From contig CAZBAJ010000003.1 of assembly GCA_964490125.1 (NCBI GenBank), positions 33,941-97,940 on the forward strand: a stretch of DNA of 64,000 nt, read 5' to 3'. This document shows, in pieces, positions 18,882-56,227 of this stretch. A program made the position numbers and the translations under genes. The notes below the pieces were generated by a model. It saw only the letters and a program-made list of their open reading frames with translations, had not been told where the DNA came from and did not search any database. Positions within the stretch are counted from its first letter, which is position 1, and each line of letters opens with the position of its first letter. Source of the stretch: an uncultured Candidatus Saccharibacteria bacterium. Its GTDB lineage: Bacteria; Patescibacteriota; WWE3; UBA101185; UBA10185.

Positions 18882-18971
18882 TGGCGGAGGGTGTGGGATT
18901 CGAACCCACGAGCGGCTTTGACACCGCTACGGTTTAGCAAACCGTTGCCGTAACCACTTGGCTAACCCTCC
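18882..18971 (-). tRNA. tRNA-Ser (anticodon GCU)
   Basis: Reverse complement GGAGGGTTAGCCAAGTGGTTACGGCAACGGTTTGCTAAACCGT... with anticodon loop TTGCTAA, a long variable arm, T-loop GGTTCGAATCC and encoded CCA. Confidence 0.85.
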
Positions 18972-23984: not shown

Positions 23985-24482
23985 GTGTTAAAGGAACCTA
24001 ACAATATTGCCTACATCGATGCGGCTAATCTTCACAACGGTAATCGCGATCTTGAATGGAGATTAGATTATAGGCGTTTTCGTGTTTGGCTACGAGAAAA
24101 ATACTCCGTAAAAATGGCATATTTGTTTATTGGTCTAATTCCAAAGTTTACAGACCTTTACAAATCTTTACAGGAATATGGATATACGCTTGTTTTTAAA
24201 GAGGTTATATACGACAAAGAAGGAAAGGCAAAAGGTAATTGCGATGCAGATTTAGTATTACAGTCAGTTCGTGATGCCTACGAGGATAATTGTGAGAAAG
24301 TAGTACTCGTTACAAGCGATGGGGACTACGCCAGTTTAGTGAAGTTTCTGATAGAGAAGGAAAAATTCAAGACTATTATTTCACCAAATATCGAAAGTAA
24401 ATGTTCAGTATTATTAAAAAGGACAGGGGCAAGTATCGTTTATTTAAATGACAAAAGATATCTTTTAGAGTTGCGTAAATAA
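23985..24482 (+). CDS. NYN-domain (LabA-like) protein
   Basis: 'AYIDAANL' at the N-terminus and 'VVLVTSDGDYASLV' match conserved acidic motifs of NYN/LabA. Confidence 0.6.
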   Translation: MLKEPNNIAYIDAANLHNGNRDLEWRLDYRRFRVWLREKYSVKMAYLFIGLIPKFTDLYKSLQEYGYTLVFKEVIYDKEGKAKGNCDADLVLQSVRDAYEDNCEKVVLVTSDGDYASLVKFLIEKEKFKTIISPNIESKCSVLLKRTGASIVYLNDKRYLLELRK

Positions 24483-26506: not shown

Positions 26507-26776
26507 ATGTTTGGGAATTTGGTCTGGGATTATACAATTTCCCCGCAGGAGTTTTTTGACATTTTGGAGAATAAGCGCGTTTTGGGTAATTTTAATCAAG
26601 ATTGGGCAATAGGCAGAGTCTTGGCGCACACTAATTACTATGACGCCATGAATTTGGTGGGTTTGACGACTTTACGGAAACATTGGTCAAATGTAAAAAG
26701 TAGAATTTTTAACAAGGAGCTTGCACATGGTTACGAATACTTACTACAAAGACAAACTTTATCCGCTACAAGATAA
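26507..26776 (+). CDS. Small protein paralogous to 652-864; putative partner of the downstream AbiEii-like nucleotidyltransferase
   Basis: Shares 'VWDY...EFF' and 'RKHWSNV' with the 'LWDYDEEEL' and 'KKYWDEL' of the 652-864 protein. It overlaps the downstream gene in the same way. Start taken as ATG 26507. Confidence 0.35.
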   Translation: MFGNLVWDYTISPQEFFDILENKRVLGNFNQDWAIGRVLAHTNYYDAMNLVGLTTLRKHWSNVKSRIFNKELAHGYEYLLQRQTLSATR

Positions 26777-27377
26777 GGTTTTACAAATTATAGGTACTTT
26801 AGATACGCCGTTTTATTTAACAGGCGGGACGGCATTATCGCGGTGTTATTTTAATCACAGGTATTCGGACGACTTGGATTTTTTTGTCAATAAAGATGCT
26901 AATTACCAAACCCATGTCGCTAAAATAGTAGACGGACTTGCAGATCTGGGCATTACCGAACTTAGAAAATTCGATACCTTTACATCTTTTATGGTGGATG
27001 GTTTGTTAAAAGTCGATTTAGTAAACGATATTCCTTCCCATATAGGTGATTTTAATGCTTTTGGTATTTTTTCAAAGGTCGACAATTTGCAGAACATCTT
27101 GTCTAACAAGATTAGTGCTTTGGTAAGCAGGGATGAGCCTAAAGATGTTGTGGACATTTGGACTATCGCTAGGTCTCAAAAAGTCGACTGGAAGCAGATA
27201 TTTGTGGATGTTTCATCTAAGGCAGTAGGGATTTTTCCTCCCGGGATTGCGGAAAGATTAGAAACATTCCCTCTGGAGTTGTTGGATAAAATCGTTTGGG
27301 TAGATGAAAAAGTGCCTGATAAAGAGATATTTAAAGTCGGGTTACAAAATATAATTGACACAATGTTGGAACCGTAA
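26721..27377 (+). CDS. Nucleotidyltransferase of the AbiEii/AbiGii toxin family (paralog of 849-1502)
   Basis: 'FYLTGGTALSRCYFNHRYSDDLDFF' motif. 218 aa against 217 aa for the paralog. Confidence 0.65.
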   Translation: MHMVTNTYYKDKLYPLQDKVLQIIGTLDTPFYLTGGTALSRCYFNHRYSDDLDFFVNKDANYQTHVAKIVDGLADLGITELRKFDTFTSFMVDGLLKVDLVNDIPSHIGDFNAFGIFSKVDNLQNILSNKISALVSRDEPKDVVDIWTIARSQKVDWKQIFVDVSSKAVGIFPPGIAERLETFPLELLDKIVWVDEKVPDKEIFKVGLQNIIDTMLEP

Positions 27378-27380
27378 AAT

Positions 27381-27890
27381 ATGGAATTTCACCCAGTCGT
27401 TCAAAAAATTAAAGACTTGCTGGAAAGTCGTCAAATTAAGTACGAATATTTTGAACACGATCCTGTTAGAACCAGCGAGGAGGCCTCAAAAATCCGTCCA
27501 GGGTTTACCTTAAAACAGGGGGCAAAGGCGCTTATTGTTAAGTTGTATTTGCGCAGGGGTGTTTCTGCTAACGGCGCTCAATCGGAGAGGTTTGTTATGT
27601 TGGTGGTGCCGGGTGACGCCAGGTTTGACGGAAAAAAAGTCAAAAAGCTATTTGACGCCAAGGATTTGCGCTTTGCCACGGAAGAAGAAGTGAGTCAGGT
27701 TACTGGGGGAGTGTTGGTAGGCGGAGTGCCTCCGTTTGGGAGTTTATTTGGTTTGCAGACTTACATGGATCCGCAAGTTGCCCAAAACGAAAAAATTATT
27801 TTTAACGCAGGCGACAGGCGGGTAAGCATCGCTCTGGCGGTTGCGGACTATATTCTCGCGGAGAATCCTCAACAAGTCGACTTAATTTAA
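27381..27890 (+). CDS. YbaK/ProX-type aminoacyl-tRNA deacylase
   Basis: About 170 aa with 'KALIVK...VVPGD.R' and 'TGG.LVGGVPPFG' patterns typical of YbaK/EbsC editing domains. Confidence 0.6.
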   Translation: MEFHPVVQKIKDLLESRQIKYEYFEHDPVRTSEEASKIRPGFTLKQGAKALIVKLYLRRGVSANGAQSERFVMLVVPGDARFDGKKVKKLFDAKDLRFATEEEVSQVTGGVLVGGVPPFGSLFGLQTYMDPQVAQNEKIIFNAGDRRVSIALAVADYILAENPQQVDLI

Positions 27891-30802
27891 GCGTGTTGGG
27901 TTTGGGGTTTGACCAGTTTTGCCAAGTCAAAAACCACCGTTATCAAAAAGGAAAGACCTAAAACCAAGAGCCAGCTTTTGTATCCAACGGGCACAGTCTC
28001 AAAAAAGATGTTTAGTGGTGTGTAGACAATAATTATGGTGGCCACTAGCGAGGCAGAAGTCGCCCAAACCAAAGGCCTATTTACTAATGGTGAGCGACTC
28101 AATGTGGGTTTTCTAAACGACCTAAAAGTAAAAGCGGTTATAATTTCTAGACAGATTAGAGCAATAAGGGTAGTAGTTGCGGAGACTCCTGCGTCGTGCC
28201 CCCAAAAATTAAAGCTAAAATACTGGGCGACTAATGTCCCTAAACCCATAAGCGCGCCAGCAAATATCAAGGTAGAAACTGTAAAGCGGTTAATAATGCC
28301 ACTTTTAGCGCGGGGTTTGGCAAGCATAATATCGGGCGAGGTGGGGTTAAAACCAAGCATTATGGCGGGAAGGGAATCGGTGACCAGGTTCATAAACAGA
28401 ATTTGCAGTGCGGTAATTATGGGAATTTGCCAGCCAAACGATGGGGCAAGTAAAACGCCAAAAAACAAAACTAAAAGTTCGGCAAAGTTACACGCTAATT
28501 GGTACGACACAAATTTTTGGATATTATTAAAGACTCCGCGACCCTCCCTAACTGCGGAGATAATGGTAGCAAAATTATCGTCCTTTAAGGTTATGTCAGC
28601 GGTAGCGCGGGAGACATCCGTACCGTTTTTGCCCATGGCAATGCCCACATGCGCCTCTTTTAGCGCGGGTGCGTCATTAACGCCGTCTCCGGTCATGGCA
28701 ACAATATGACCCAGTTCTTTTAACGCTTTAACAATGCGGATTTTGTGTTCCGGACGCACCCGCGCAAAAACCACCGTCGATTCTACAATAAGTCGCAAAC
28801 CTTCGTCCGTTAAGTCGTCAATATCCGCGCCTTCCAAAGCCTTACCCTCAAGCCCAATTTTTCTACCAACCGAAATTGCCGTCTCAATATTGTCGCCCGT
28901 AATCATTTTTACTGTAATACCAGCCGTTTTTGCCGTTTGCACTGCCTGTTTAACTTCTTCCCGCGGAGGATCCTCCAGAGCCAGTAGTCCCAAAAATACC
29001 AAGTCAGACTCTAATTCTGCCAGCTCTTTTTTTACCAAATCCTGCGAGTTTAGCTCGTCAGCTGGTTTGTGTGTAAGTCGACCAAAAAGTCGTGCTAACA
29101 AAGAGTTGTGCGGATGATTTTCTACCGGATGCGGTCCCACTTTTTTATACGCCAGCGCCAAGGTTCGGTAAGCTTGACCGGACGCCTCATTTACCAAAGT
29201 TTTTATACTTTCTTTGGTTGACTCTGTGAGGGCAACTTCCTGTCCATCTTTTGCTATAAACGCGCTTTTTTCCAGTAGGACTTCCGGCGCGCCCTTGGAA
29301 AATACTATTACGCCGTCCGCACGACTTTCCTGGTCTTTTACCGCCACCGACATCATTTTTCTTTCGGAACTAAAGGGAAGTTCTTCCAGTCGAGCGGTGT
29401 CGATGTCCTCCTTGTATAGTCCCGCTTTGCCGGCTAAAACCAGGAGTGCGCCTTCGGTGGGGGAGCCGGTAACTTTAATGTCGGAGTTTTGTTCGGTGGC
29501 TTGTATTTTGGCGTCGTTACAAATGACGGCGCAGGTAAGTAGGCGTTTTAATTCGGGCGACATTGTAAGGTCGGCGACATACCTTCCCTCGCTAGGTCCT
29601 CGTCCGCCAAGGCGGACTGCGGAAGCGCTCGGGTAAGGTATGTCTGCCGACCCGCCATTGCCAAGGAAGGAGGCGTCAAGCCTTCTCACTTGGTCCTCCC
29701 CCGCTGTGGCGGGGTGCGGTGATCGTTCGAAGGACTTCTCGCCTCCTTTTTCATCGATATTCCCTCGTCGTACTATGTCCCCGTCTAAACTAAAACCCGC
29801 TCCACCTACATCATAAATATCGTTCCCACAATAAATTTGCTTAACAGTCATTTGACCCGTGGTAATAGTCCCTGTTTTGTCGCTACAAATTACCGTCACC
29901 TCACCCAGAGTTTCTATAACGCCCATCCTATTAACAATGGCGTTTTGTTTTGCCATTCGGCCCGCTCCTACCGCTAAAGTAGTAGTTAGTACCACGGGCA
30001 AGCCCTCCGGAAAGGAAGAAACAGAAAGCGCTACCACCAAAATTAAAATGCCTGTCATGTTTTCCCAATCCAAAGACGGATTCCGCACAAACATCAGAGC
30101 TCCAGTCGCTAAAGCCATCGTTAAACCAACTGCCACTGTATACTTCCCAATGGCGTTTACCTTTTTTTGCAAAGTTAACTCTTTTTCCGCACCGGAAATT
30201 AGGGATGCAATTTTGCCAAATTTGGTTGACATGCCGGTCTGCACAACGCGCGCTACACAGTGTCCACCCACAATAAATGAGCCCATATAAATCTCATCGT
30301 TTACAAACTTTTCTACCTCTTTAGCCTCTCCCGTTAAAACAGACTCGTTTACTAACAGCGATTTCTGGTCCAAAATCTCACAGTCAGCCGGCACTTTTTC
30401 TCCAGTTCGCAAAATTACAACGTCATCTGGTACTAAATATGTACTTTCCACCTTCTGTTCTTTGTCGTCCCTAATGACCGTGGAAAACTGGGTCAACATA
30501 TTTTTTAGCGCCTCCGTAGCCTTTTCTGCCTTGTATTCCTGAATAAAACCAAAGACCACTACTACAATTACTACTGCTATAAGTGCGTAGGTAGTTTCTA
30601 TTTTTCCCACAGCAAAAGAAATTATGGACGACACTGCAAGCAGATAAATTATAAAATTGCCTCTAATTTGTCGGAGTAAAATTTTAAGGGGACTTGCTTT
30701 GTTTGACTCTTTTATCTGGTTTAAACCGTATTTTTCTAGGCGACTTTGCGCTTCGCGCTGATTAAGTCCAACAAAACTTTGGGGCATGGATTTATTATAC
30801 AC
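27887..30802 (-). CDS. P-type cation-transporting ATPase (type II, Ca2+-ATPase-like)
   Basis: 'ICSDKTGTITTG' phosphorylation motif, 'MTGDGVNDAPALK' hinge motif and 'TGES'-like actuator region. 971 aa. It contains an in-frame GC-rich low-complexity insertion in the N domain (see repeats at 29573-29730). Confidence 0.9.
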   Translation of the reverse strand: MYNKSMPQSFVGLNQREAQSRLEKYGLNQIKESNKASPLKILLRQIRGNFIIYLLAVSSIISFAVGKIETTYALIAVVIVVVVFGFIQEYKAEKATEALKNMLTQFSTVIRDDKEQKVESTYLVPDDVVILRTGEKVPADCEILDQKSLLVNESVLTGEAKEVEKFVNDEIYMGSFIVGGHCVARVVQTGMSTKFGKIASLISGAEKELTLQKKVNAIGKYTVAVGLTMALATGALMFVRNPSLDWENMTGILILVVALSVSSFPEGLPVVLTTTLAVGAGRMAKQNAIVNRMGVIETLGEVTVICSDKTGTITTGQMTVKQIYCGNDIYDVGGAGFSLDGDIVRRGNIDEKGGEKSFERSPHPATAGEDQVRRLDASFLGNGGSADIPYPSASAVRLGGRGPSEGRYVADLTMSPELKRLLTCAVICNDAKIQATEQNSDIKVTGSPTEGALLVLAGKAGLYKEDIDTARLEELPFSSERKMMSVAVKDQESRADGVIVFSKGAPEVLLEKSAFIAKDGQEVALTESTKESIKTLVNEASGQAYRTLALAYKKVGPHPVENHPHNSLLARLFGRLTHKPADELNSQDLVKKELAELESDLVFLGLLALEDPPREEVKQAVQTAKTAGITVKMITGDNIETAISVGRKIGLEGKALEGADIDDLTDEGLRLIVESTVVFARVRPEHKIRIVKALKELGHIVAMTGDGVNDAPALKEAHVGIAMGKNGTDVSRATADITLKDDNFATIISAVREGRGVFNNIQKFVSYQLACNFAELLVLFFGVLLAPSFGWQIPIITALQILFMNLVTDSLPAIMLGFNPTSPDIMLAKPRAKSGIINRFTVSTLIFAGALMGLGTLVAQYFSFNFWGHDAGVSATTTLIALICLEIITAFTFRSFRKPTLSRSPLVNRPLVWATSASLVATIIIVYTPLNIFFETVPVGYKSWLLVLGLSFLITVVFDLAKLVKPQTQHA
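29573..29730. repeat. Two adjacent GC-rich palindromic mini-elements inside the P-type ATPase coding sequence (in frame)
   Basis: Element 1 spans about 29573-29648. Its outer inverted repeat is cgacataccttccc / gggtaaggtatgtc and its core hairpin is gtccgccAAggcggac. Element 2 spans about 29690-29730 with core hairpin cccccgcTGTGgcgggg. The two cores match the two elements near mnmA (gtccgccATGggcggac and cccccgccAGTggcggggg). GC is well above background. Confidence 0.5.
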
Positions 30803-44258: not shown

Positions 44259-45845
44259 ATGCCCAACATTGTTGAATCTCCCTTTGTAGGTGGCAAAGTT
44301 TTTGATCCCAAGCAGGAATTACACTCTCTGACCGCAGGTCAAGAACATTATTCCTATGAAGCTGTTGAGGATTTCAAACATAAATACGAATTCCAAACCC
44401 AGGGTCTAGCACAACTTGAGGAGGAAATCGTTGATGCTTTGGAAAAGAACCTAAGGACAACCAAAGAAACATTGATGGTAATGTTGGCAGAGAGATCGCA
44501 CGATCTTGGATTAACAGGGGAACAAAGTTTACTGGCATCTTCCTTAATTGGCGAATTTATGAACAGGCACGCTGCTGTAATGGATGTTTATGACAGGCAT
44601 AACGGAGATCCAAAGGCAATTTATCAGGAAGTATTTGGCAGAGAAGCCGTAGGTGATGTCGAGACGATTCTCGGTCCCTCCGTACTGTATTTTAGATGTC
44701 ATAGCGAGGATGACTACGCTTTGATATATAGTCAAAAGTTCTTAGCAACGGGGCAACCTCTGACAGAGGAGGATAAAAGGATTGCAAACAATTCTGGTGG
44801 TGCAAGTATACAAACCGCCCTTAGTCCATCTTTACAGGGAGCGTTAATTGCGGAAAACGCACACGGTAGACCCTACGATGGTGTAGCAAGGGAGATTTAC
44901 GAACATGAAAAAAGGCACGCACTCAACAAATTCTTTTTAGAGCGGGGAACGGCGATTAATAGATTTTACGAGATGAAGAATGCCAAAACACCGGAAGAGC
45001 GGGATTTTGCAATGAAGCAATATCTACGATTTATCAGAAGTGGGCAAGAAAGCCGTGCTGCCGATGAACTACTCGCTTATTCTAGTACTGGTAATGAGTC
45101 GCAGTATATTTTGGATACGCTAACTCGTAAAAAGGCTGACGGAGGGCTTTATGACTATTTTGCGGATTATGTAGGTAGCGACTCAACTGGCGGGGGGGGG
45201 CAGATGGAGGAATTTCTTATCAGTATACTGGGTTCGGAAAATAGGCAAAAAATACGAGATGCCATACAGCAGGTATTTGTGGATGAGTATAGGCGAGAAC
45301 TTACAAGAGGTATAGATTCGATCAAACGGCTTACTAGCAGGGGCTACTCACCCCAAGAAGCAACCTCGATTTTAGGGAGGACACCCCTTACAGAATGGAC
45401 GAAAATTAGCAGTCGTTTAGCTGCGGAAAGGTACTTACCGCGAGAGAAATTTTGGCTACCCGGCAACAAAGGTATTAAAGTAGTTGTTGCCGACAGCGAT
45501 GGTCAATTTTATGGTGATGTTGAATTAGCAAGGTACAACCCGTATACCGGTTTACCGGAATATGGGACCATGCGGGACGATCCTGCAGGTAACATTGATT
45601 CCATGCCTGTTGACGATCTTAAAGCTATTAATTATCCATTCAAAACACCTGATTTGTGGTATGAGGTTTGGATGCGTTCTGGAGGGGACCCTGCGGTGAA
45701 AGAAAGCCTAAATCTCGATTTTACCTCTACCCAAGAGATTTCTGCTGATGTTGCATGGGGAAAATTTAGAAGATACTGCAAACCCGATAGTAGGGCTCTT
45801 CGTGTTTTTAATACATATCGGAGGTTACTTCGTGAGGCGTATTAA
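44259..45845 (+). CDS. Large hypothetical protein (528 aa) with a single HExxH (HEKRH)
   Basis: No transmembrane segment. 'EIYEHEKRHALNKFFLERG' contains a potential zincin motif. There is an internal G9 homopolymer at 45192-45200. Confidence 0.45.
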   Translation: MPNIVESPFVGGKVFDPKQELHSLTAGQEHYSYEAVEDFKHKYEFQTQGLAQLEEEIVDALEKNLRTTKETLMVMLAERSHDLGLTGEQSLLASSLIGEFMNRHAAVMDVYDRHNGDPKAIYQEVFGREAVGDVETILGPSVLYFRCHSEDDYALIYSQKFLATGQPLTEEDKRIANNSGGASIQTALSPSLQGALIAENAHGRPYDGVAREIYEHEKRHALNKFFLERGTAINRFYEMKNAKTPEERDFAMKQYLRFIRSGQESRAADELLAYSSTGNESQYILDTLTRKKADGGLYDYFADYVGSDSTGGGGQMEEFLISILGSENRQKIRDAIQQVFVDEYRRELTRGIDSIKRLTSRGYSPQEATSILGRTPLTEWTKISSRLAAERYLPREKFWLPGNKGIKVVVADSDGQFYGDVELARYNPYTGLPEYGTMRDDPAGNIDSMPVDDLKAINYPFKTPDLWYEVWMRSGGDPAVKESLNLDFTSTQEISADVAWGKFRRYCKPDSRALRVFNTYRRLLREAY

Positions 45846-45917
45846 AATCGTTTATTAAAAAAGTGAGGATACGAATTAATTTTGGTGAAATACGAGTTTT
45901 GTTGCTAAACTAATCTT

Positions 45918-46445
45918 ATGCAAATCCTCGCCCGAAATTCGGTTTTATGGGAATACCTTTCGCCTGAGCAACAAGGCTTGGTGCAAGACGGCGAGCTTTT
46001 AATGGAGCAGGCGCACAAAATGCCTCACGGTGTCTCCGATTATTCTTATCTTGTTTTCCCTTTTTCCAAAGCCTATGAGGGCTTTTTAAAAAAGCTGTTT
46101 TTGGACATGAAGCTGATGCGTCCGGAGGATTATTACGGCGAGGACATTAGAATCGGCAAAATTTTGAATCCGCATTTTACCAAAGAGCACGACTCTGTTT
46201 ATAACCGCGTTTGCAAGGGCGCCTTAGAAAACGGAGAAAATATTGTAGCAGCACGACTTTGGAACACCTGGAAAAAAGGGCGTAATCTGGTTTTTCATTA
46301 CTTTCCTCACAATTTTAGGCGACTTTCTTACGACGAGGCAAAAGGGATTATTGAGGAAATTGTTGGTTCTATGAGTTTTGCCATGGAAAAGTGCGATCTT
46401 CCTGTTTATAAGTCAGAAAAGGTAGATTCTTTAGTTCTGTCTTGA
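45918..46445 (+). CDS. HEPN-domain protein (R-N-x3-H motif)
   Basis: 'WKKGRNLVFHYFPH' contains the canonical R[NDH]xxxH HEPN motif near the C-terminus of a helical, roughly 175 aa protein. Confidence 0.5.
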   Translation: MQILARNSVLWEYLSPEQQGLVQDGELLMEQAHKMPHGVSDYSYLVFPFSKAYEGFLKKLFLDMKLMRPEDYYGEDIRIGKILNPHFTKEHDSVYNRVCKGALENGENIVAARLWNTWKKGRNLVFHYFPHNFRRLSYDEAKGIIEEIVGSMSFAMEKCDLPVYKSEKVDSLVLS

Positions 46446-46448
46446 GAC

Positions 46449-46519
46449 TTGCCTGCGATTTGAGGAGTCGGGCGTCCGCCATGGGCGGACAGGGACCCGC
46501 GACGAAAAACGCAGGCAGG
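46449..46519. repeat. GC-rich palindromic mini-element, intergenic copy (HEPN gene / mnmA spacer)
   Basis: ttgcctgcg-atttgaggagtcgggcgtccgccatgggcggacagggacccgcgacga-aaaa-cgcaggcagg. It has outer inverted repeats and an inner perfect hairpin gtccgcc/ggcggac. The core is shared with the copy at 46965-47039. Confidence 0.6.
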
Positions 46520-46556
46520 TCGAGAATAATTCTTGTCGATGAGCTACAATCTCCCC

Positions 46557-47777
46557 ATGTCGTCAAACAAAATAAAAGTAGCGGTGGGGCTTAGCGGAGG
46601 CGTGGATTCGGCAGTTTCCGCCTACCTACTTAAATCTCAAGGTTACGATGTTACCGGCGTTCACATGCAATGCTGGGATTATTCCGACGAAACCTGCAAA
46701 GGCAACGAAGACCGCAGTGACGCGGTGGCAATTTGTGGTCAGCTGGATATTAAGTTTAAGTTTTTGAATTTTGAAAAAGAGTACAAAAGCAAGGTGATTG
46801 ACTATTTTTATGCGGAGTATAAGGCTGGGCGCACACCTAATCCGGATGTTTTGTGTAACAAGGAAATTAAGTTTGGACTTTTTTTGGACTGGGTGATGCG
46901 GGAAGGTTTTGACTTTGTGGCGACGGGGCATTATGCAAGAATAGAAAGCGCATTTGAGGAGGATGGCACGGCAATTCGAGGAGTCGGGCATCCCCCGCCA
47001 GTGGCGGGGGATCGGGACCCGCGACGAGAATGTCGTGCCATCCGACAAACACCGCAGTCGTACAGATTGCTCAAAGGCGTCGACGACAGCAAGGATCAGT
47101 CGTACTTTTTATACCGCCTGACCCAAAGTCAACTGGCAAAAACACTTTTCCCCATTGGCGCAATGAAAAAAAGCGAGGTTAGGAAAATTGCCAAAGAGCA
47201 AAAATTAGTGGTGGCGGAGAAAGCGGAAAGCATGGGGATTTGTTTTGTGGGCGAGGTGGACATCAACAAGTTTTTAAAAAAGCAGATTGAGCCAAAAGCG
47301 GGCGAAGTTATTTTAAAATCCACTGGGGAGACAATTGGTCGACATGAAGGAGTTTGGTTTTACACCATCGGTCAGCGCCACGGGTTTGAGGTGACCAAAT
47401 ATGTAGGTTTGCCGTTGTATGTGGTGGGTAAAAATATTGACCAGAACCAGTTAATTGTTGGCTATTACAACGACTGCTTGCGCGATGGGTTTGATGTCGA
47501 CGATGTTTTTTTTATATCGGAAGGCACGGCGCCAGCTTTTCAAATTCACGGTGTGGAGAACAAGCTCGGATTAGGTTTGGATAGCGAGGTAATTTCTTCC
47601 TTTGACTGCGATGTTCGTATAAGGCACTTGGGTCAACTATACAAGGCTAGGGTTACAAAATCGACAGCGAGTTCATTGCAGATACGACTTGAAGAATCCG
47701 CCTTTGGCGTTGCTCCAGGCCAATCCGCCGTTTTCTACCAGGGTGATGTGGTTTTAGGTGGCGGTGTAATAGTTTAG
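46557..47777 (+). CDS. mnmA: tRNA-specific 2-thiouridylase MnmA
   Basis: PP-loop 'VGLSGGVDSAV' and 'KDQSYFLY', with the C-terminal domain ending 'PGQSAVFYQGDVVLGGGVI'. Start chosen at 46557 (MSSNKIKVAVGL); the longer ORF starts at 46533. It contains a 25-codon in-frame element (46965-47039). Confidence 0.85.
   Translation: MSSNKIKVAVGLSGGVDSAVSAYLLKSQGYDVTGVHMQCWDYSDETCKGNEDRSDAVAICGQLDIKFKFLNFEKEYKSKVIDYFYAEYKAGRTPNPDVLCNKEIKFGLFLDWVMREGFDFVATGHYARIESAFEEDGTAIRGVGHPPPVAGDRDPRRECRAIRQTPQSYRLLKGVDDSKDQSYFLYRLTQSQLAKTLFPIGAMKKSEVRKIAKEQKLVVAEKAESMGICFVGEVDINKFLKKQIEPKAGEVILKSTGETIGRHEGVWFYTIGQRHGFEVTKYVGLPLYVVGKNIDQNQLIVGYYNDCLRDGFDVDDVFFISEGTAPAFQIHGVENKLGLGLDSEVISSFDCDVRIRHLGQLYKARVTKSTASSLQIRLEESAFGVAPGQSAVFYQGDVVLGGGVIV
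46965..47039. repeat. GC-rich palindromic mini-element, copy inserted in frame in mnmA (25 codons)
   Basis: ggcacggca-attcgaggagtcgggcatcccccgccagtggcgggggatcgggacccgcgacga-gaatgtcgtgcc. It shares 'att[tc]gaggagtcgggc' and 'gggacccgcgacga' with the intergenic copy and encodes GTAIRGVGHPPPVAGDRDPRRECRA, which lies in a region that is about 10 aa long in E. coli MnmA. Confidence 0.6.
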
Positions 47778-47862
47778 CGCGGTTTTTTTGATCTATCCCT
47801 CAAAGGCTATTTTCTATCGTATTGCAATTGAATTGCATTTGCAATCTATATGCAATACAGGG

Positions 47863-50274
47863 TCAGAAGGTGTTTGCGATCGTAAAAACGCTACCTTCCA
47901 GTTTAATCTCGTCCTTAAAAAGCCCAAGCGTGTCTACTTTTAACAAGTGCGAGTCTTGCGTGGGTTCCCAATTTTCCGCCAAATCTACGGAGCGGTAAAG
48001 CACGGCAAAGATTCCCTCTTTTACAATTTGGGTTTGGGTTAAATACTCTTCCCAGGAATCTCCGCCGTCTAAAGAAAAAAAGGTTTTTGCTACGCCCGAC
48101 CCGCCTTCTCCGTCCGTGGCGCTCAATTCTATAAAAGGACTTTGGGTGTACCAACCGTCGGTCTGGTTTCCGCTAATACTTATAATGGTTGACGGGGGAT
48201 CTGGGTCAATTTTGTCCCCAAAAACCGCGAATTCACTTAAATGATTAGTAAAACCTGTGATTTTCTTAGTCGATTCGTCCCACACCGAAGCAATTTCTTC
48301 CCAAAATTGGTTTTCTGCGTTAAAGTACAAAATTTTCAGGCTTGACGGGATAATGGCGGACAAATTTAGTTGTGACAAATCAAAAGAAATGTCTATCAAG
48401 TTAGCAAACGATGTTACTGCATCACCCAAATTGTCATAGGCGGTAAACTTTGTGACGGTGCCTTGGATGTAGCTATTAACCACATCTGCCAGTTCCACAT
48501 TAGCTTTAGTGGATTTTTGGGCTTTTAGGGTAATATTTTTGTCCAAAGCTTCGGCCGGAATTGTTATAGAAACCTTATCTGCGGAAACCGTCCCCCCACC
48601 GTCGTCCAAATACTGGGAATTTACCTCCAAAAATTCTTTCCATAAATAATAGCTTTCCGCGCCTGTGTGGTCGCCCAGATCGTCCGTCCAGCTATAAACT
48701 TCCCACGGATCTTCCGACCGTTCGTCCTGCCAGGAATACGGATCAATCCGCCCGTCAGGGACATCGTCCGTAAAGTCGCCGTTTAAATTTTTGTCGTACC
48801 GCACCCCAAAATGCAAATGCGGTCCTGTGGTGTTACCTGTAAGTCCAACCAACCCAACCTGCTGGTTCTTGTCAATCCATTTAGGTTCTTTATCTTTAGA
48901 AGTTACAAACAAGCCCTCTTTTTGAAAATGCAAATACTGCGTTTGATAGCCGTTTTGGTGGTCTATTTTAATAGTATGACCGCCTCCGGCTGAATACGAG
49001 TACGATGCGTAACCGGAAGCCGGGGCTAAAATGGGCGTGCCGTATTTGAGTCCAAAGTCTACTCCGTCGTGGCTGGAATAGTACAGTTGGGGGGTTTTTT
49101 CTTTGTCGCCCCAAAAATTTACCGTGGTATTAGCCTCTTTTGTCGGTTCGCTTTTGTAAGGGTAGGCAAGCAGGGGGTAGGCGTGGTCAAAATACGAGGT
49201 TATAGTGTCTGTTTGGTCGCTCATGGCGTCCCGCGCCCACAATTTGTCCAAAAAAGATTGGGTTTTTGGCACATACGGCGGGACTTTATACCGGAACAAG
49301 CCTGTGCCTGGGCTGGTGGCAAAAATGTAGCCTGGTTCTGCTACAAGGTAGGCAAGTTCGCGGATATAATTTACAAGTTCGTCCGAAGGGTTTTCATCCT
49401 CCCAGGTCACGCCTTTGTCGCGCGACTTTAGAACATTGTAATAGCCGGTGTTGTTGCTGTGGGAAGACGCGTAAAACACGCCATTATAATAGGTAGTAGC
49501 GTAGCATGGATTGGGACTCCAGTTAGGTATTGGGTAAAAGGTTTCCCCATTGTCGGTTGACCTATAAAGTCCTGCTGTGGTGTCACTGCAAGCCAGCCAC
49601 ACGTTGTTGTTGACGGCAAGTCCCAGTAGATAGCCCGGTACTGCGGTAAATAGTCCCCAAGTATTACCGCAGTCGTAAGAAATGTAAGAATTATAGTAAT
49701 TAGAAACTACCACGGCGTCGTCCGCCACATTTACCCTTAAATAGTCACCACTAGAGCCAAAAATGTCTTTGTTTTGATTCCATGTCTGTCCACCGTCGTC
49801 AGAAACCCAAAGTCCGTGGCTATAAGTGCCTAAAATTATATTGTTCCCGCAGGTAGCAACGCTTGCCGTAGAGCAATCGGGACCAATGTGTACCCAGGTT
49901 GACCCCTTGTCGCTTGATTTATACAATCCCGGCGCTTCACTTACGCCCCAATAATAAACTGTGGCATATAAATTCCCATCGTCGTCAAAAGCAATATCCG
50001 TTACACCCCGGTCAAAAAGTCCGCTTTCTTGCCAGGTTTGGCCTAAGTCGCGCGAGAAAAAAACACCGTTGTAAGGAAAAGAACTCCAATTACTGTTAAA
50101 CTCGCCCGCGTAAAGTCCCCACGGGGTTATTTCCGTAGTGTAAAAAGCCTTTGGACTGGCAAGCAGTTCCCAAGCGTCATTCTCCTGATTTATGGTTAAC
50201 GCATAGGTTTTTGCTGTCAATAAAGCCATGTTTATTAAAGCAATCAAAACCAAAGTCGACCAGATTTTTTTCAT
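47863..50274 (-). CDS. Secreted BNR/Asp-box repeat protein fused to an M23 (LytM-type) peptidase domain
   Basis: Signal peptide. Multiple S-x-D-x-G-x-T-W Asp-box repeats ('SRDLGQTWQE', 'SSDKGSTWVH', 'SDDGGQTWNQ', 'SYDCGNTWGL', 'STDNGETFYP', 'SRDKGVTWED'). M23 signature 'GNTTGPHLHFGVRY'. 803 aa. Confidence 0.65.
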   Translation of the reverse strand: MKKIWSTLVLIALINMALLTAKTYALTINQENDAWELLASPKAFYTTEITPWGLYAGEFNSNWSSFPYNGVFFSRDLGQTWQESGLFDRGVTDIAFDDDGNLYATVYYWGVSEAPGLYKSSDKGSTWVHIGPDCSTASVATCGNNIILGTYSHGLWVSDDGGQTWNQNKDIFGSSGDYLRVNVADDAVVVSNYYNSYISYDCGNTWGLFTAVPGYLLGLAVNNNVWLACSDTTAGLYRSTDNGETFYPIPNWSPNPCYATTYYNGVFYASSHSNNTGYYNVLKSRDKGVTWEDENPSDELVNYIRELAYLVAEPGYIFATSPGTGLFRYKVPPYVPKTQSFLDKLWARDAMSDQTDTITSYFDHAYPLLAYPYKSEPTKEANTTVNFWGDKEKTPQLYYSSHDGVDFGLKYGTPILAPASGYASYSYSAGGGHTIKIDHQNGYQTQYLHFQKEGLFVTSKDKEPKWIDKNQQVGLVGLTGNTTGPHLHFGVRYDKNLNGDFTDDVPDGRIDPYSWQDERSEDPWEVYSWTDDLGDHTGAESYYLWKEFLEVNSQYLDDGGGTVSADKVSITIPAEALDKNITLKAQKSTKANVELADVVNSYIQGTVTKFTAYDNLGDAVTSFANLIDISFDLSQLNLSAIIPSSLKILYFNAENQFWEEIASVWDESTKKITGFTNHLSEFAVFGDKIDPDPPSTIISISGNQTDGWYTQSPFIELSATDGEGGSGVAKTFFSLDGGDSWEEYLTQTQIVKEGIFAVLYRSVDLAENWEPTQDSHLLKVDTLGLFKDEIKLEGSVFTIANTF

Positions 50275-51694: not shown

Positions 51695-51774
51695 TTAAAT
51701 GACCTCATTTTCCTTAGTTGATCAATGTGGTAAATTGACGGCACTGAAATTGGCGCCGTTTTGAATAGTAGTCC

Positions 51775-52416
51775 TTAGACTGCGTTCCGGGTTAGACCGT
51801 GATAGAAACGGCGTATATTTTTATAGATAGACCTCTTCATCCCCTCTGTTTTCGTTGTATTGTTGATACTTCTTCCCGTTTCGTATTCGTATACGAGTCC
51901 AGAAACCATGTCTGCAACTTGAATCAACTCGTCGTTTTTGGAATTACTGTACCTTATTTCAAGTTGAGCATCGGATGATTTATCTTTAACAGCTCTTTTT
52001 ATATCCATTAAGTATTTTTTACTACCTTTACCGTCTATGACTATGTGAAATGCAAAAGAACCAGTTGGTAAAGTTTTCCTTATTTGAGCGAAAAGATAGC
52101 CTAAATACTTTCCGTAACTGGTATTAGGATCGTTAGGTTTTTTATTTACCACTAAAGCAAAAGCTTGGCATTCCACATGTTTCAGATTTCCAAAGAAAGC
52201 TTCCTTATATAAACCCCGCGTTTTCTGATACTTAAATTCATAACTTCCCGGAATTTTGAGATGTTTCTTGAGTGTTTGTATTTTTTCTACTGCCAGCATA
52301 GTGGAGATTTTGTCAGAAAAGTAAATTGCAGACATAACAAAAACTTTAGAAGCTCCTCGCCTTGTAATAGAGCCGATGTCGCCAGACTCGTCAATAAAAA
52401 GGTATTGTTTTACCAT
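51775..52416 (-). CDS. DUF3800-family protein
   Basis: N-terminal 'YLFIDESGD' and C-terminal 'LIQVADMVSG' are the hallmark motifs of DUF3800. Confidence 0.6.
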   Translation of the reverse strand: MVKQYLFIDESGDIGSITRRGASKVFVMSAIYFSDKISTMLAVEKIQTLKKHLKIPGSYEFKYQKTRGLYKEAFFGNLKHVECQAFALVVNKKPNDPNTSYGKYLGYLFAQIRKTLPTGSFAFHIVIDGKGSKKYLMDIKRAVKDKSSDAQLEIRYSNSKNDELIQVADMVSGLVYEYETGRSINNTTKTEGMKRSIYKNIRRFYHGLTRNAV

Positions 52417-53252: not shown

Positions 53253-54154
53253 GTCGTTTGTCCCCTGATTCTATTGTCGTACTATTACTACACAGGCAGG
53301 GCGTCAGCTCTTTGAAAAATTGTGGAAGAAAGTATAGGTAAGAAGACCTTTCTACTTTAAAGTCGTACAACAAGGTACCAGCAAAAAACGCTGATACCGT
53401 GGTCAAAAGACAAGTTCAAAAGTTGAAAGGCAAAAAGAATGTTTCTTTGAGAATTTGATCCTAGTTCAGGACGAACGCTAGCGGCGTGCCTAAGGTATGC
53501 AAGTCGAACGGTTTAATTGTCGCAAGATAGTTGGATAGTGGCGAACGGCTGAGTAACACACAGGAATCTACCCATAAGTAGAGGATAGTCTGCCGAAAGG
53601 CAGGGTAATACTCTATGTGGTCGCAAGACTAAAGCAGCAATGCGCTTAAGGATGAGCCTATGGCCTATCAGGTAGTTGGTGGGGTAATTGCCTACCAAGC
53701 CTATGACGGGTAGCCGGTCTGAGAGGACGAACGGCCAGAGGGGGACTGAGACACGGCCCTCACTCCTACGGGAGGCAGCAATTGGGAATTTTGCACAATG
53801 GACGAAAGTCTGATGCAGCGACGCCGCGTGAAGGATGACGGCCTTCGGGTTGTAAACTTCGATAAAGCACCGGCAAACTACGTGCCAGCAGCAGCGGTCA
53901 TACGTAGGGTGCAAGCGTTGTCCGGATTTACTGGGCGTAAAGAGTTCTGTAGGCGGTTGCGTAAGTTACAAGTTAAATCTTTGGGCTCAACCCAAAAACT
54001 GCTTTTAATACTGCGCGACTAGAGACATCTAGGGGACAGCGGAACTTATGGTGGAGCAGTGAAATGCGTTGATATCATAGGGAACACCAAGGGGGTAGCC
54101 AGCTGTCTGGGGATGTACTGACGCTGAGAGACGAAAGCGTGGGGAGTAAAACGG

Positions 54155-55192
54155 ATAGTAGTCTGGTCCCTCCTTTAAGGTGACTTTTAGGAGAAAAATT
54201 CGGCTATATGCTGGGACACCCGTACCACAATTAAGGGAAATATGTGGTTGACACCAAAATGTCGTAAAAGTATCTTGAACTACTAAACATATTCGGGTAA
54301 AATTCGTATATGTTCAGTGAAAATGTTTCAAGTGCGGACAATCAGCAGGAAAGACTGGGAACAAAAGTTCCCGGAATCCTCAGAGACTGTACGCCGAATG
54401 TCTCGGGTTCTTTTGGTTTACCTTCCTTATTGGGTCTACTTTATACTGATGGCTGTCTTTCAGCCAAAGGTAAAAGTTGGCGTTTATTCTTTGCCGTCAA
54501 GTCGTACAAACTGGTATGCGTGTTTGAAGAATGCGTCTATCGGTTGTTTAATGTCGACAAGGGCAGAGTGAGGGTAGCTAGAACAAAAGATGATTTATGG
54601 AGAGCGGTTGTAGACTCTAAAGAAATTGGAAACTACTTAACAAAAAACTTTGGTTGTTTTAGAACAGCAAAGTTTAAAGACGGTTCCTTACCGGGAATCA
54701 GGTTACCATTAACCTATCTTAGGCAATGTAACGGTATTAGAGAATTTTTGTCGTCCGCATTTAGTTGCGACGGCGGAGTTTCTTTTTATCCAGTTTACAG
54801 AACCGGTAGGTTTGGTGGAACTAGGTGGTTTAACAGAAATGTTTTTTTGGCGTGTATGCACCCTATGTTACTTAATGACTACAGTTTTTTGCTAAATTCA
54901 TTGGGTATAAAGGGGTCTGTGCTAAACGACAGGATAAAGATTTCTTCTAGAGAAGATATGTCCAACTTCCAGCGTGAAGTGGATTTTATCAAAGGTGTTG
55001 AGGTTACTAATCATTCCAAACTATGGAGAGGTTTAGATAAGTCAACACTATTAACATACGCTATAAATTCATATACAAACCGAGATAATGGTATAGCCCG
55101 ATCTCTATAGCGATATAGAGAGTTAGTGATAGTGTACTAACCTTTTGTCCTAATTAAAGAGTGACAAAAGCAACAAGCAGAAATATTACAAT
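54155..55192 (+). mobile_element. Intervening sequence or intron within the 16S gene (at the 'GGATTAGATACCC' ~785-800 region), carrying a homing-endonuclease ORF
   Basis: About 1036 nt absent from the canonical 16S alignment. The boundaries are ambiguous by 1-2 nt because 'at' is shared at the junction. Class (group I, other, or unspliced IVS) was not determined. Confidence 0.6.
54310..55110 (+). CDS. LAGLIDADG homing endonuclease (double-motif)
   Basis: Motif 1 'LLGLLYTDGCLS' and motif 2 'FLSSAFSCDGGVSF', about 100 aa apart, inside the 16S intervening sequence. 266 aa. Confidence 0.7.
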   Translation: MFSENVSSADNQQERLGTKVPGILRDCTPNVSGSFGLPSLLGLLYTDGCLSAKGKSWRLFFAVKSYKLVCVFEECVYRLFNVDKGRVRVARTKDDLWRAVVDSKEIGNYLTKNFGCFRTAKFKDGSLPGIRLPLTYLRQCNGIREFLSSAFSCDGGVSFYPVYRTGRFGGTRWFNRNVFLACMHPMLLNDYSFLLNSLGIKGSVLNDRIKISSREDMSNFQREVDFIKGVEVTNHSKLWRGLDKSTLLTYAINSYTNRDNGIARSL

Positions 55193-55683
55193 GTAGATAC
55201 CCGTGTAATCCACGCCGTAAACCATGCCTGCTAGATACCCGATTTATTTTAGGTGTCGAAGCTAACGCGTTAAGCAGGCCGCCTGGGGAGTACGGTCGCA
55301 AGGCTAAAACTCAAAGGAATTGGCGGGGTCCCGCACAAGCGGTGGAGCATGCTCTTCAATTGGCTGCTAACCCAAGAACCTTACCCAGACTTGACATGCA
55401 AGAGTTCTATGCCGGTGAAAGCCGGCAAATCCGCAAGGAGGCTTGCACAGGTGTTGCATGGCTGTCGTCAGCTCGTATCGTGAGACGTACCCTTAAGTGG
55501 GCTAACGAGCGCAACCCCTACCGTTAGTTGTATCACTCTAGCGGAACTGCCCTGGTAACAGGGAGGAAGGCGGGGACGACGTCAAGTCAGGATTGCCTTT
55601 ATGTCTGGGGCTAGAAGCATGCTACAATGGCGCGTACAGCGAGAAGCAAGATCGTGAGGTTGAGCAAATCTCTTAAAACGCGT

Positions 55684-55722
<39 letters not shown>

Positions 55723-56227
55723 TTGGAATCGCTAGTAATCGGCGGTCAGCTATACGCCGGTGAATACGTTCTCGGGTCTTGCACACACCGCCCGTCACGC
55801 CAGCAAAGCTGGGGCTACCCTAAATCTCTGCATTAGTAGGGCTCACGGTAGAACCAGTGATGAGGGTGAAGTCGTAACAAGGTAGCCGTAGGGGAATCTG
55901 CGGCTGGATCACCTCCTTTCTAGGGAGAAACTTTAGCCAGTGAAAAATCGGATACTTTAATGACCAAGCGTCAAGCGAGTCCGTCTTTGAATCTGGCGCC
56001 GTCTGACCAAGAAACTCATAAGTCAAACGCGTAACCTCCATAACTCACGGAGGGTTGGGTAAGTTTTAAGGTAAGCTTCAAACCTTTAAATGAGCATTCT
56101 TTTTGCCTTTCTTCCTTTGAACAATTAAATTTAGGACGACTTTTTGGGCGACAAATTAGGAGTTTGACGATTTTATCTGTTGATATGTCGCACGATTTGT
56201 CCACTTTGTGCGATTTAACGGTGTTAA

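Follow-up and report, generated by a model that had tools for sequence, protein, structure and literature searches.

The GC-rich hairpins found in the window (the whole 64,000-nucleotide stretch of DNA analysed here) are probably copies of a non-autonomous selfish palindromic DNA repeat, similar in kind to the Rickettsia palindromic elements (RPEs), in a lineage of Patescibacteria (the ultra-small bacteria of the CPR) near WWE3 and Microgenomates. The repeat unit measures ~72-90 bp (typically ~75 bp) and is 65-77% GC in genomes of 41-47% GC; copies occupy both spacers and genes, in either orientation. In the window the elements are 65-68% GC against ~42% for the window as a whole, in line with the compositional contrast described in the initial annotation. 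An outer stem of 13-22 bp, which differs from copy to copy, encloses a conserved and asymmetric core in which the 5′ segment TYGAGGAGTCGGGC pairs with the 3′ segment MGGGACCCGCGACGARAA. This pairing leaves two tandem G-A/A-G mismatches, a bulged U, a CGGG/CCCG helix, and bulged GG and A. The apical hairpin is GC-rich and variable among copies.

The window holds two canonical copies and two that we class tentatively as degenerate (Table 1). That the canonical pair belongs to one family, with a common core wrapped in copy-specific arms, had been proposed on first reading and was confirmed both by a covariance model and by exact matches. Copies A and B are the only places in the window where the 12-mer GAGGAGTCGGGC and the 14-mer GGGACCCGCGACGA are found, once in each copy. 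Chance recurrence of the exact 12-mer in 128 kb (both strands) is estimated at ~0.008, and the 14-mer recurs too, with matched spacing. The sites assigned to the two copies by the initial annotation stood, and the full hairpins extend a few bases beyond both ends of the intervals given there (46449-46519 and 46965-47039).

Table 1. Positions of the elements and their host or neighbouring genes in the window.
Feature	Coordinates	Strand	Description
Copy A	46444..46521	+	Intergenic; covariance model 54.6 bits, E 2e-11
Copy A layout	outer arms 46446-46457 / 46510-46521; 5′ core 46458-46473; apical hairpin 46474-46490; 3′ core 46491-46509	+	
Copy B	46958..47047	+	In frame, sense, inside mnmA; covariance model 74 bits, E 3e-16
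Copy B layout	outer arms 46961-46973 / 47031-47043; 5′ core 46974-46989; apical hairpin 46990-47012; 3′ core 47013-47030	+	
Element C	29569..29651	-	In frame, sense, P-type ATPase; covariance model 15.4 bits, E 0.22 (filters off)
Element D	29664..29750	-	In frame, sense, P-type ATPase, directly upstream of C in the gene; covariance model 14.1 bits, E 0.47 (filters off)
Cation-transporting P-type ATPase	27887..30802	-	971 aa as listed
Upstream neighbour ORF	45918..46445	+	175 aa; weak RnlA-toxin-like matches; stop codon abuts copy A
mnmA (tRNA 2-thiouridine synthase)	46557..47777	+	406 aa, ORF intact; homologues with PF03054, PF20259 and PF20258, named MnmA at source

Copy A reads GACTTGCCTGCG-ATTTGAGGAGTCGGGC-GTCCGCCATGGGCGGAC-AGGGACCCGCGACGAAAAA-CGCAGGCAGGTC from 46446 to 46521 and folds at -46.4 kcal/mol (z -6.4 versus shuffled sequence). 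It lies directly 3′ of the TGA (46443-46445) of an RnlA-like ORF (45918-46445) and ends 35 nt upstream of the mnmA ATG. The C-terminus of the RnlA-like ORF falls at the same residue position in L002, where the element is missing. The same spacer is also without a copy in L124 and L127, carries an identical copy A in L001, and in L125 holds a different copy in the opposite orientation.

Copy B, which reads GGATGGCACGGCA-ATTCGAGGAGTCGGGC-ATCCCCCGCCAGTGGCGGGGGAT-CGGGACCCGCGACGAGAA-TGTCGTGCCATCC from 46961 to 47043, folds at -56.3 kcal/mol (z -6.4 versus shuffled sequence) and codes for roughly residues 135-165 of MnmA. Translation bore out the earlier claim that 46965-47039 comprises exactly 25 in-frame codons (GTAIRGVGHPPPVAGDRDPRRECRA), and the region, put there at about 10 residues in E. 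coli MnmA, proved just as short in relatives: the spacing from HYARI to LLKGVD is 10 residues in MnmA relatives without the element, compared to 41 in the window protein. Many orthologues have an empty site here. AlphaFold modelling of MnmA (mean pLDDT 79.6) gives residues 135-139 and 141-165 a pLDDT <50 and places them between the strands at 128-131 and 169-172, with the remainder of the protein outside the insert modelled confidently. On this model the insert is predicted to be a disordered loop of ~25-31 residues at the tip of a beta-hairpin, a permissive surface site. Translation of the inserts, which is probable, would yield peptides such as GVGHPPPVAGDRDPR. A second window-specific insertion in MnmA (47526-47589) was considered as a further element and rejected, as it is not a hairpin (z -0.25).

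The assignment of the two adjacent segments in the P-type ATPase gene, which had been annotated as diverged copies, held in part. Elements C and D are the third and fourth best covariance-model matches in the window, and they share with the family the apical stems GTCCGCC/GGCGGAC and CCCCGC/GCGGGG and the overall architecture; the GTCCGCC/GGCGGAC stem of C is identical to that of copy A. Both fold strongly (z versus shuffled sequence -6.3/-7.8 for C and -4.1/-4.7 for D) and they are related to one another (alignment z 5.8; nhmmer E 0.08-1.3). Against this, their covariance-model E values are high (Table 1) and a sequence profile did not recover the pair (E>50). A canonical copy (L128:11040-11114, E 6e-12) is found in the orthologous ATPase at the same site as D, and the outer arm ends of this copy and of D have 5′ GGAGGCG and 3′ GACGCCTCC in common. 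The segment corresponding to C is missing from ATPase orthologues. C and D appear to be degenerate family members, rather than clear copies, with position as the main argument. The close relatives of this ATPase are 870-928 aa long; by comparison with relatives that begin MPQS, the window gene probably starts at the ATG at 30787. The ATPase pair and a half-element remnant in the mnmA of relatives illustrate the decay of old copies. A high-GC gene at 16651-17532 was rejected as a family member, its covariance-model matches reaching only E 7-9.5.

The initial annotation had called for a search of related genomes. A covariance model built from 17 copies was used to search the window and related Patescibacteria contigs, and 20 distinct copies were identified (E 1e-7 to 5e-19); copies with the same core and unrelated arms occur in other contigs. 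Related genomes differ in density, from one copy per ~3 kb to one per ~16 kb; one contig (L125/L128) carries nine copies in ~29 kb, eight of which are intragenic, and the syntenic relatives L130 and L131 have none in 42.5 kb (covariance model, filters off). Occupancy therefore varies between close relatives. The same elements are found at orthologous sites in independent assemblies (Logan, NCBI, JGI, ENA), and paralogues at different loci of one genome have arm sequences in common. Scans with sequence patterns added little: among the matches listed for the pattern GTCGGGC..GGGACCCGCGMCGA in a genome collection, one was a real extra copy (L070) and the rest were chance matches in high-GC genomes, and an exact-core pattern picked out five metagenome stretches, one of them a chance match in 70% GC DNA (L123). 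The exact-core pattern had no match in a viral collection, and BLAST found none in phage and plasmid collections. The literature searched, incomplete in its coverage, gave no account of such elements in CPR.

Comparison of filled with empty sites indicates the size of the inserted unit. MnmA and ATPase proteins of close relatives lack the segments, with clean boundaries and a difference of whole-hairpin size, as the family interpretation had anticipated. At the MnmA site and two ATPase sites the filled proteins are longer by 23-24 residues, near the 75-nt unit, and the excess over all six sites compared, with the orthologues in L130 and L131 as the empty reference, is 19-28 residues. The inserted unit is thus the entire hairpin, including both arms. 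The possibility that the outer arms are copied from the target site was rejected, since the filled-site excess approximates the whole hairpin and paralogues at other loci have the same arms.

Coding copies reside in MnmA, the P-type ATPase, DNA ligase, an SMC-like ATPase, a GT4 glycosyltransferase, an acyltransferase, a GT-like membrane protein, another membrane protein (669-aa ORF, L122) and one small uncharacterised ORF. In every coding copy examined the host ORF stays open. A tally from gene coordinates gives ~11 sense and 8 antisense copies relative to the host gene; sense copies are read in three frames (RGVG..RDPRRE, EESG..GTRDE and LRRRA..) and antisense copies in two (FSSRVP.. and LVAGP..). 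Most coding copies are free of stops in all six frames within the element. While spacer copies have TTTGAGG, which contains TGA, most coding copies have TCGAGG together with a compensating change on the partner strand. The inserts are probably translated as floppy protein loops.

The folding check suggested by the initial annotation came out in its favour: the hairpins fold strongly (z -4 to -8), and their stems co-vary. Twenty-one of 27 stem pairs have changed on both sides; 80% of alignment cells are paired, compared to ~40% when the partner is slid, and the observed values were reached in none of 500 shuffles. Close paralogues diverge mainly through compensated double changes: L122a and L122b are separated by three double changes, with a single difference among 21 unpaired positions. 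The core is constrained at the level of its bases. In the window copy B and its orthologue in L002, 29 of 31 core bases are identical, compared to only 45% identity at 4-fold sites of the same gene. For the copies that came from pattern search, conservation of the core is in part built into the method; it also holds for copies found later by profile and for orthologous pairs. Comparison of the window with its closest relative L001 was uninformative about selection, identity being mosaic and ~100% across both elements and their flanks. A feature that the initial annotation did not foresee is that the copy-specific arms belong to the inserted unit and evolve by compensated change.

Paired stems of this kind could also reflect selection on RNA, in which case the copies would be functional structured RNAs (cis-regulatory hairpins or small RNAs) with a protein-binding internal loop. 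The strong covariation and the conserved purine-rich internal loop are consistent with this explanation, as is the observation that with RNA energy parameters 15 of the 17 copies fold more stably as the element plus strand than as the minus strand. This advantage is due solely to the favourable energy assigned to tandem G-A pairs and is nearly gone with DNA parameters, under which the two strands fold about equally. An apparent excess of G-U over A-C pairs on the plus strand (27 versus 5) proved to be a counting artefact; a symmetric recount gives 27 G-U pairs on each strand, and this parity points to a DNA palindrome, not an RNA. Intragenic copies in both orientations and syntenic relatives with no copy at all likewise argue against a structured RNA. 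Rfam returned nothing overlapping the elements at gathering thresholds and no family match even at E up to 10, the best local matches (E 7-9) being to unrelated families. Hammerhead, K-turn or C/D-box and other ribozyme motifs were considered and rejected: the UGAGGA/CGACGA loops bear a superficial resemblance to C/D boxes, but they lack the 3-nt bulge and Rfam gave no match. We therefore regard an RNA function as improbable. Less probable still are intervening sequences that are cut at the stem and religated from the mRNA, or bypassed by the ribosome, such that the peptides are never made. Long perfect GC stems in coding sequence should impede translation, and insertions in rRNA are a known trait of CPR bacteria, one being present in the 16S gene of the window. 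However, open and stop-free frames in both orientations and in several frames would be needless if the segment were removed, the TGA-containing TTTGAGG is a feature of spacer copies with TCGAGG in most coding copies, and neither a take-off/landing codon pair nor a ribozyme motif was found.

The foremost competitor of the selfish repeat, itself unlikely, is a DNA signal selected by the host (an uptake, recombination, replication or defence-related site) and spread by the cell, and thus not purely selfish. Core conservation at orthologous sites is well above neutral expectation, different genomes have the same sites filled, in some cases with the orientation reversed, and the ORFs scanned include no transposase, all of which a host signal would accommodate. 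It is harder to reconcile with the uneven density among related genomes, down to zero copies in close syntenic relatives, with the persistence of degenerate copies, and with protein insertions within essential genes, which look costly, not designed. A purely local and independent origin (for example, template-switch mutation in GC-rich codons), or assembly artefacts, with no dispersed family, is hardly credible. Arm-to-arm templated correction, a known mutational route, would account for perfectly paired, copy-specific arms. It would leave unexplained the asymmetric core of 26-31 nt common to unlinked loci and different genomes, the within-genome paralogues with common arm sequences, and the orthologous-site elements in independent assemblies, which also count against an artefact. 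Taken together, these results favour a selfish palindromic DNA repeat.

We infer that the repeat is mobile from the differences in presence and absence and from the spread of paralogues. No transposase, RAYT, Y1_Tnp or other mobilising candidate was detected when ~40 window ORFs were compared with Pfam, nor did any appear among the genes called in the flanking sequence of the related contigs. Neither a conserved flank nor a consistent direct repeat was seen at the hairpin boundaries, which are placed to within a few bases, the empty sites being too diverged for base-level comparison. In one possible model, an enzyme encoded elsewhere would move the element in trans, recognising its conserved core once the DNA had extruded as a hairpin or cruciform. 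The arms would need only to pair; selection for transposition competence, or else correction of one arm with the other as template, would preserve their complementarity at the DNA level, and selection against frameshifts and stops would filter which gene insertions survive. The asymmetric centre might flip in place through recombination between the arms, or the same permissive sites might be hit repeatedly. We suggest only tentatively that this amounts to an undescribed mechanism of mobile DNA, in which nothing but the internal asymmetric module (two tandem G-A pairs and the bulged GGGA) is conserved, the arms are regenerated or corrected at each move, and in-place flipping may occur. If so, repeats at ~1 copy per 3 kb, mostly intragenic, would be a major unrecognised source of lineage-specific insertions in CPR proteins.

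To our knowledge, selfish palindromes inside protein-coding genes are a textbook curiosity, familiar mainly from Rickettsia and organelles. Patescibacteria, which are likewise host-dependent and have small genomes, provide a second and independent case, and this suggests that such elements are driven into genes repeatedly wherever genomes are reduced and spacer DNA is scarce. The family accounts for part of the variation in length, and of the low-complexity inserts, of CPR proteins (MnmA 343-432 aa; P-type ATPase 870-971 aa), and the inserted segments can mislead alignment, phylogeny and structure prediction. The near-invariant asymmetric core, combined with fast two-sided change of the arms, makes the family a natural system for studying palindrome upkeep and the recognising enzyme, and the differences in occupancy among syntenic relatives are possible strain-level markers in metagenomes.

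Several known systems invite comparison. Bacterial MITEs (Correia/NEMIS, ERIC, BOX, RUP and others) have conserved terminal inverted repeats matching a parent IS, and target-site duplications (PMC10969869). Like them, the CPR elements are small, non-autonomous and hairpin-forming, MITEs too being occasionally intragenic with in-frame fusions possible. In the CPR elements, however, the termini are the variable part and the centre is conserved, with no duplication visible at boundaries placed to within a few bases and no parent IS found in the window or flanks. REP sequences and REPINs are 20-40 bp, extragenic, begin with a GTAG or CGTC head and are mobilised by RAYT (Y1/HUH) transposases (PMC3733652). 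The likeness lies in an imperfect, GC-rich palindrome, presumably recognised as a hairpin of single-stranded DNA, and in a conserved recognition module in place of long terminal repeats. The CPR elements, in contrast, are 72-90 bp and mostly intragenic, with no GTAG or CGTC head at the aligned copy ends, and the ~40 window ORFs gave no Y1_Tnp match of the kind expected for a REP/REPIN-RAYT system. Yeast mitochondrial GC clusters are GC-rich hairpin repeats in an AT-richer genome. These clusters, together with mitochondrial double-hairpin elements and coding palindromes, resemble the CPR elements as GC-rich hairpins inside genes that still function, combining stringent structure with an open frame. 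They differ in being organellar and in their sequences; moreover, both arms of the coding palindromes of Nematomorpha mitochondria encode conserved protein regions (PMC6649704), whereas the CPR insert is predicted to be an added disordered loop.

The closest parallel remains the RPEs, which, according to PMC10969869 (citing Ogata et al. 2000, 2002), are ~100-150 bp elements of ten families in an alphaproteobacterium. Both are short, geneless palindromes dispersed in the small genome of a host-dependent bacterium, with a mobilising enzyme identified in neither, and both occupy spacers and also unrelated housekeeping genes, where they lie in frame and are apparently compatible with the fold and function of the host protein. 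The CPR unit is shorter (~75 bp), far more GC-rich than its genome and from another phylum, and its conserved asymmetric core is flanked by co-varying outer arms that differ between copies. Each RPE is said to encode a conserved peptide, whereas the CPR elements use several frames and both orientations. The resemblance to RPEs proposed at the outset is thus supported as a functional one, drawn by comparison with descriptions of RPEs. The two differ in size, GC content and host phylum and have no known sequence relationship; the CPR elements are placed in an RPE-like functional class and not filed as RPE members.

Two closely related repeats were read on the plus strand of the window. One is intergenic (copy A) and begins directly after the stop codon of the upstream ORF, while the other (copy B) lies in frame within mnmA and supplies approximately residues 135-165. 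Both contain a 5′ block (TYGAGGAGTCGGGC) and a 3′ block (MGGGACCCGCGACGARAA), and the 12-mer and 14-mer blocks of this core each occur exactly twice in 64 kb, in copies A and B only. Each copy has its own perfect GC hairpin at the centre (GTCCGCC-ATG-GGCGGAC for A, ATCCCCCGCC-AGT-GGCGGGGGAT for B) and its own outer inverted repeat (GACTTGCCTGCG/CGCAGGCAGGTC for A, GGATGGCACGGCA/TGTCGTGCCATCC for B). Their GC content is 65-68%, versus ~42% for the window. Each is predicted to fold into a single long hairpin (-46 kcal/mol for A, -56 kcal/mol for B; z = -6.4 each) in which the outer stem is followed by a UUY/RAA helix, two tandem G-A/A-G mismatches split by a G-C pair (5′ GAGGAG versus 3′ CGACGA), a bulged U, a CGGG/CCCG helix, a C-G pair with bulged GG and A, and the apical hairpin. 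The sequence as read matches the initial annotation, whose observation of two copies with a shared core and copy-specific arms is borne out. No Rfam family was found at either site.

Positions of the repeats and of other features (window coordinates unless a relative's stretch is named)
Feature	Position	Strand	Remark
Copy A	46446-46521	+	intergenic
Copy B	46961-47043	+	within mnmA
mnmA	46557-47777		
Element C	29569-29651	-	in frame and sense in ATPase
Element D	29664-29750	-	in frame and sense in ATPase
Half-element remnant	L002:10368-10399		
Half-element remnant	L124:1849-1879		
Second MnmA insertion	47526-47589		residues 324-344
Third ATPase insertion	~28890-29020	-	estimated from protein position
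Toxin-/defence-like genes	849-1502, 9702-10103, 23985-24482, 26721-27377, 45918-46445		last one is the ORF before copy A
293-aa ORF	16651-17532	+	
tRNA-Ser	18882-18971	-	
TPR membrane ORF	18958-20823		621 aa
DUF3800-IX RNA	51752-51819	+	
DUF3800 gene	51775-52416	-	
16S rRNA gene	53443-55919		2477 nt
ORF in 16S insertion	54310-55110	+	LAGLIDADG_3 match

DNA of syntenic loci from relatives (stretches designated by L numbers) was compared with the window. A search of metagenome contigs for the exact core returned four real stretches, and a pattern scan of a genome collection gave at least one further copy; all of these copies share the core but not their outer arms, which are 15-22 bp long and unrelated. 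A profile made from them detected further, more divergent copies, and a covariance model based on 17 copies recovered 20 distinct copies in all (E 1e-7 to 5e-19), so that the search in related genomes proposed initially was productive. The contig of one relative (L125/L128) carries nine copies in the ~29 kb examined, eight of them inside genes, and the window two canonical and two degenerate copies in 64 kb. Two syntenic relatives (L130 and L131) yielded none in 42.5 kb with the covariance model run unfiltered and hits accepted to E 1, and their orthologous proteins are shorter at exactly the sites occupied elsewhere. The proposed alignment of mnmA and ATPase orthologues likewise found the segments absent from relatives, with a deficit of 23-24 residues in MnmA and at two ATPase sites, nearly matching the 75-nt unit; across all six sites it is 19-28 residues. 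Because proteins with empty sites are shorter by about the length of a hairpin, the inserted unit is the whole hairpin with both arms, and this difference rules out arms copied from the target site. Searches of viral, phage and plasmid collections did not find the element. A spacer copy from a MAG labelled Saccharibacteria (L070:2258-2286) has its apical hairpin reduced to GCGAAGC, known as a DNA mini-hairpin of exceptional stability.

MnmA homologues 60-86% identical to the window protein range from 343 to 432 residues. The spacing from HYARI to LLKGVD is 10 residues in many aligned relatives and in WWE3 outgroups, and 41 in the window protein. A subset of relatives has a peptide of the same type (..RGVG..RDPRRE..) at this place, and others have a different peptide (..ATAFSSRVP..), which is the element read on the other strand. 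Judged by these alignments, the mnmA segment is a lineage-specific insertion. AlphaFold2 models the window protein confidently as a whole (mean pLDDT 79.6), but pLDDT is <50 over residues 135-165, which lie between the strands at 128-131 and 169-172; this predicts the insert to be a disordered loop at the tip of a beta-hairpin. Copies A and B are both present and unchanged in L001 (86% MnmA identity). L002 (70%) lacks copy A, and its copy B has a different, fully paired apical hairpin (GTCCCGC/GCGGGAC), an outer stem altered at paired positions (GCA/TGT to ATG/CAT) and two Watson-Crick pairs in place of one tandem G-A (GGAG/CGAC to GGCG/CGCC). Just upstream of the intact sense mnmA copy, L002 and L124 carry a half-element remnant (antisense 3′ core, TCGTCGCG..), at a place where L127 has one complete antisense copy. 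This arrangement hints at nested insertion or partial inversion, and the remnant shows the same kind of decay as the ATPase elements described below.

A second, window-specific MnmA insertion (..TAPAFQIHGVENKLGLGLDSEV..; pLDDT <50) is absent from L001; it was rejected as a hairpin element (z -0.25) and is thus a different kind of indel. Over 45800-48000, identity between the window and L001 is a mosaic: ~100% over 45800-46550 and 46910-47090, 82-93% over the rest of mnmA to ~47510 and lower beyond, with 47510-47630 and 47780-47870 unalignable. This pattern suggests recombination between related populations.

Across the window and the relatives' loci, the host genes are mutually unrelated, encoding MnmA, a P-type ATPase (two sites), an ATP-dependent DNA ligase, an SMC-like ATPase, a GT4 glycosyltransferase, an acyltransferase, a GT-like membrane protein, another membrane protein (a 669-aa ORF in L122 with two copies) and a small ORF. 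Tallied from gene coordinates, ~11 copies are sense and ~8 antisense to the host gene, using three sense and two antisense frames. In most coding copies all six frames are free of stops across the element. The motif TTTGAGG of spacer copies includes a TGA; its counterpart in most coding copies is TCGAGG, compensated by CGAGAA on the partner strand. A single site can hold opposite orientations in different genomes. The mnmA site is occupied in sense in the window, L002 and L124, in antisense in L127 and L125, and is empty in many orthologues; the spacer upstream of mnmA is occupied in sense in the window, in antisense in L125, and is empty in L002, L124 and L127; one loop of the GT-like membrane protein (within ~6-8 codons) is occupied in sense in L121 and in antisense in L119. 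Either the asymmetric centre is flipped by arm-arm recombination, or permissive sites are hit repeatedly.

The initial annotation had also counted two ATPase hairpins as further, diverged copies. Both (C and D) are long hairpins (fold z -4 to -8) in a segment absent from ATPase orthologues, are related to one another (alignment z 5.8; nhmmer E 0.08-1.3) and have apical stems matching those of A and B. The sequence profile of the family did not detect them. With filters off, the covariance model placed them third and fourth in the window (E 0.22 for C, 0.47 for D), aligned in the same orientation over the full model length; apical stems are unscored by the model, so their similarity is additional. 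The orthologous ATPase of L125/L128 has a canonical copy at the same site (E 6e-12), with outer arms that begin and end like those of D (GGAGGCG... and ...GACGCCTCC). On this mixed evidence, chiefly the last, we treat C and D as degenerate family members. D is probably orthologous to that copy and C a tandem derivative. A third long ATPase insertion (GPHPVENHPHNSLLARLFGRLTHKPADELNSQDLVKKELAELE) is common, among aligned homologues, only to the window protein and P0122, a protein homologue, and gave no signal in GC or hairpin scans.

Pairing is maintained while sequence changes. Changes on both sides were seen in 23 of 32 proposed pairs in the 17-copy alignment and in 21 of 27 in the model-fitted alignment, where 80% of cells are paired versus ~40% with partners slid by 1-3 columns; none of 500 shuffles reached the observed values. 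Between close paralogues, arm differences are mostly compensated double changes and the unpaired core is nearly unchanged (three double changes, one single change and 1/21 unpaired positions between the two L122 copies). L002 and the window agree at 29 of 31 core bases but at only 45% of mnmA four-fold degenerate sites, so the core is constrained or homogenised. Such compensation could reflect a structured RNA. However, G-U pairs are rare (~5%) and equal on the two strands (27 versus 27), fold strength with DNA parameters is about equal on both, and orientation bias is absent, which together favour a palindrome maintained at the DNA level. An apparent excess of G-U over A-C was dropped as an artefact of mismatch counting. 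Three further rivals, like the structured RNA, each fail at least one direct test: an intervening sequence that is excised or bypassed, palindromes arising locally de novo or as assembly artefacts, and a DNA signal selected by the host.

Several other features of the window were recorded. The 16S rRNA gene exceeds its 1533-nt model by an insertion of ~940 nt, and the LAGLIDADG_3 ORF within it suggests an intron with a homing endonuclease, which are common in CPR; L002 and L125 have LAGLIDADG ORFs downstream as well. A DUF3800-IX RNA match (Rfam, 38.8 bits; gathering score 36.8) overlaps the 3′ end of the DUF3800 gene on the opposite strand. The 293-aa ORF (local GC to 0.70 versus 42%; hydrophobic N-terminus; no Pfam match) may be a foreign gene; it was rejected as a family member (covariance model E only 7-9.5). 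Several toxin- or defence-like genes were noted: two of AbiEii type, a PIN, an NYN and a weak RnlA-like match. The TTG listed as the start of the TPR ORF falls within the 5′ end of tRNA-Ser; the true start of this ORF probably lies further downstream.

Among ~40 window ORFs scanned against Pfam and the genes called in the relatives' flanking DNA, none was a transposase, a RAYT or otherwise an obvious candidate for mobilising the element, and no target-site duplication was seen at hairpin boundaries, themselves placed to within a few bases. Our preferred inference is that an enzyme supplied in trans would recognise the core, as its recognition module, on an extruded DNA hairpin, with arms that would need only to pair. 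Taken together, the 20 copies, empty orthologous sites and open ORFs support the initial likening to RPEs (Rickettsia palindromic elements), that is, selfish palindromic repeats of a known kind, here in Patescibacteria. Full-text literature searches turned up nothing describing elements like these in CPR or Patescibacteria. Their conservation pattern, variable arms around a conserved asymmetric centre, is unusual and hence worth attention.

RPEs are the closest match by function: they are gene-less palindromic repeats of a reduced genome, many of whose housekeeping genes carry them in frame (summarised in PMC10969869). The present elements differ from RPEs in size, composition and host, use several frames and both orientations, and have variable termini. 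Unlike a classical MITE, they lack conserved terminal repeats, and no parent IS was found in the window or the flanks. Nor do they show the REP/RAYT hallmarks: in contrast to short extragenic palindromes they are longer and mostly intragenic, no GTAG or CGTC head is seen, and no Y1 transposase turned up among the ~40 window ORFs. Mitochondrial GC clusters parallel them in another setting, as do mitochondrial coding palindromes (PMC6649704).
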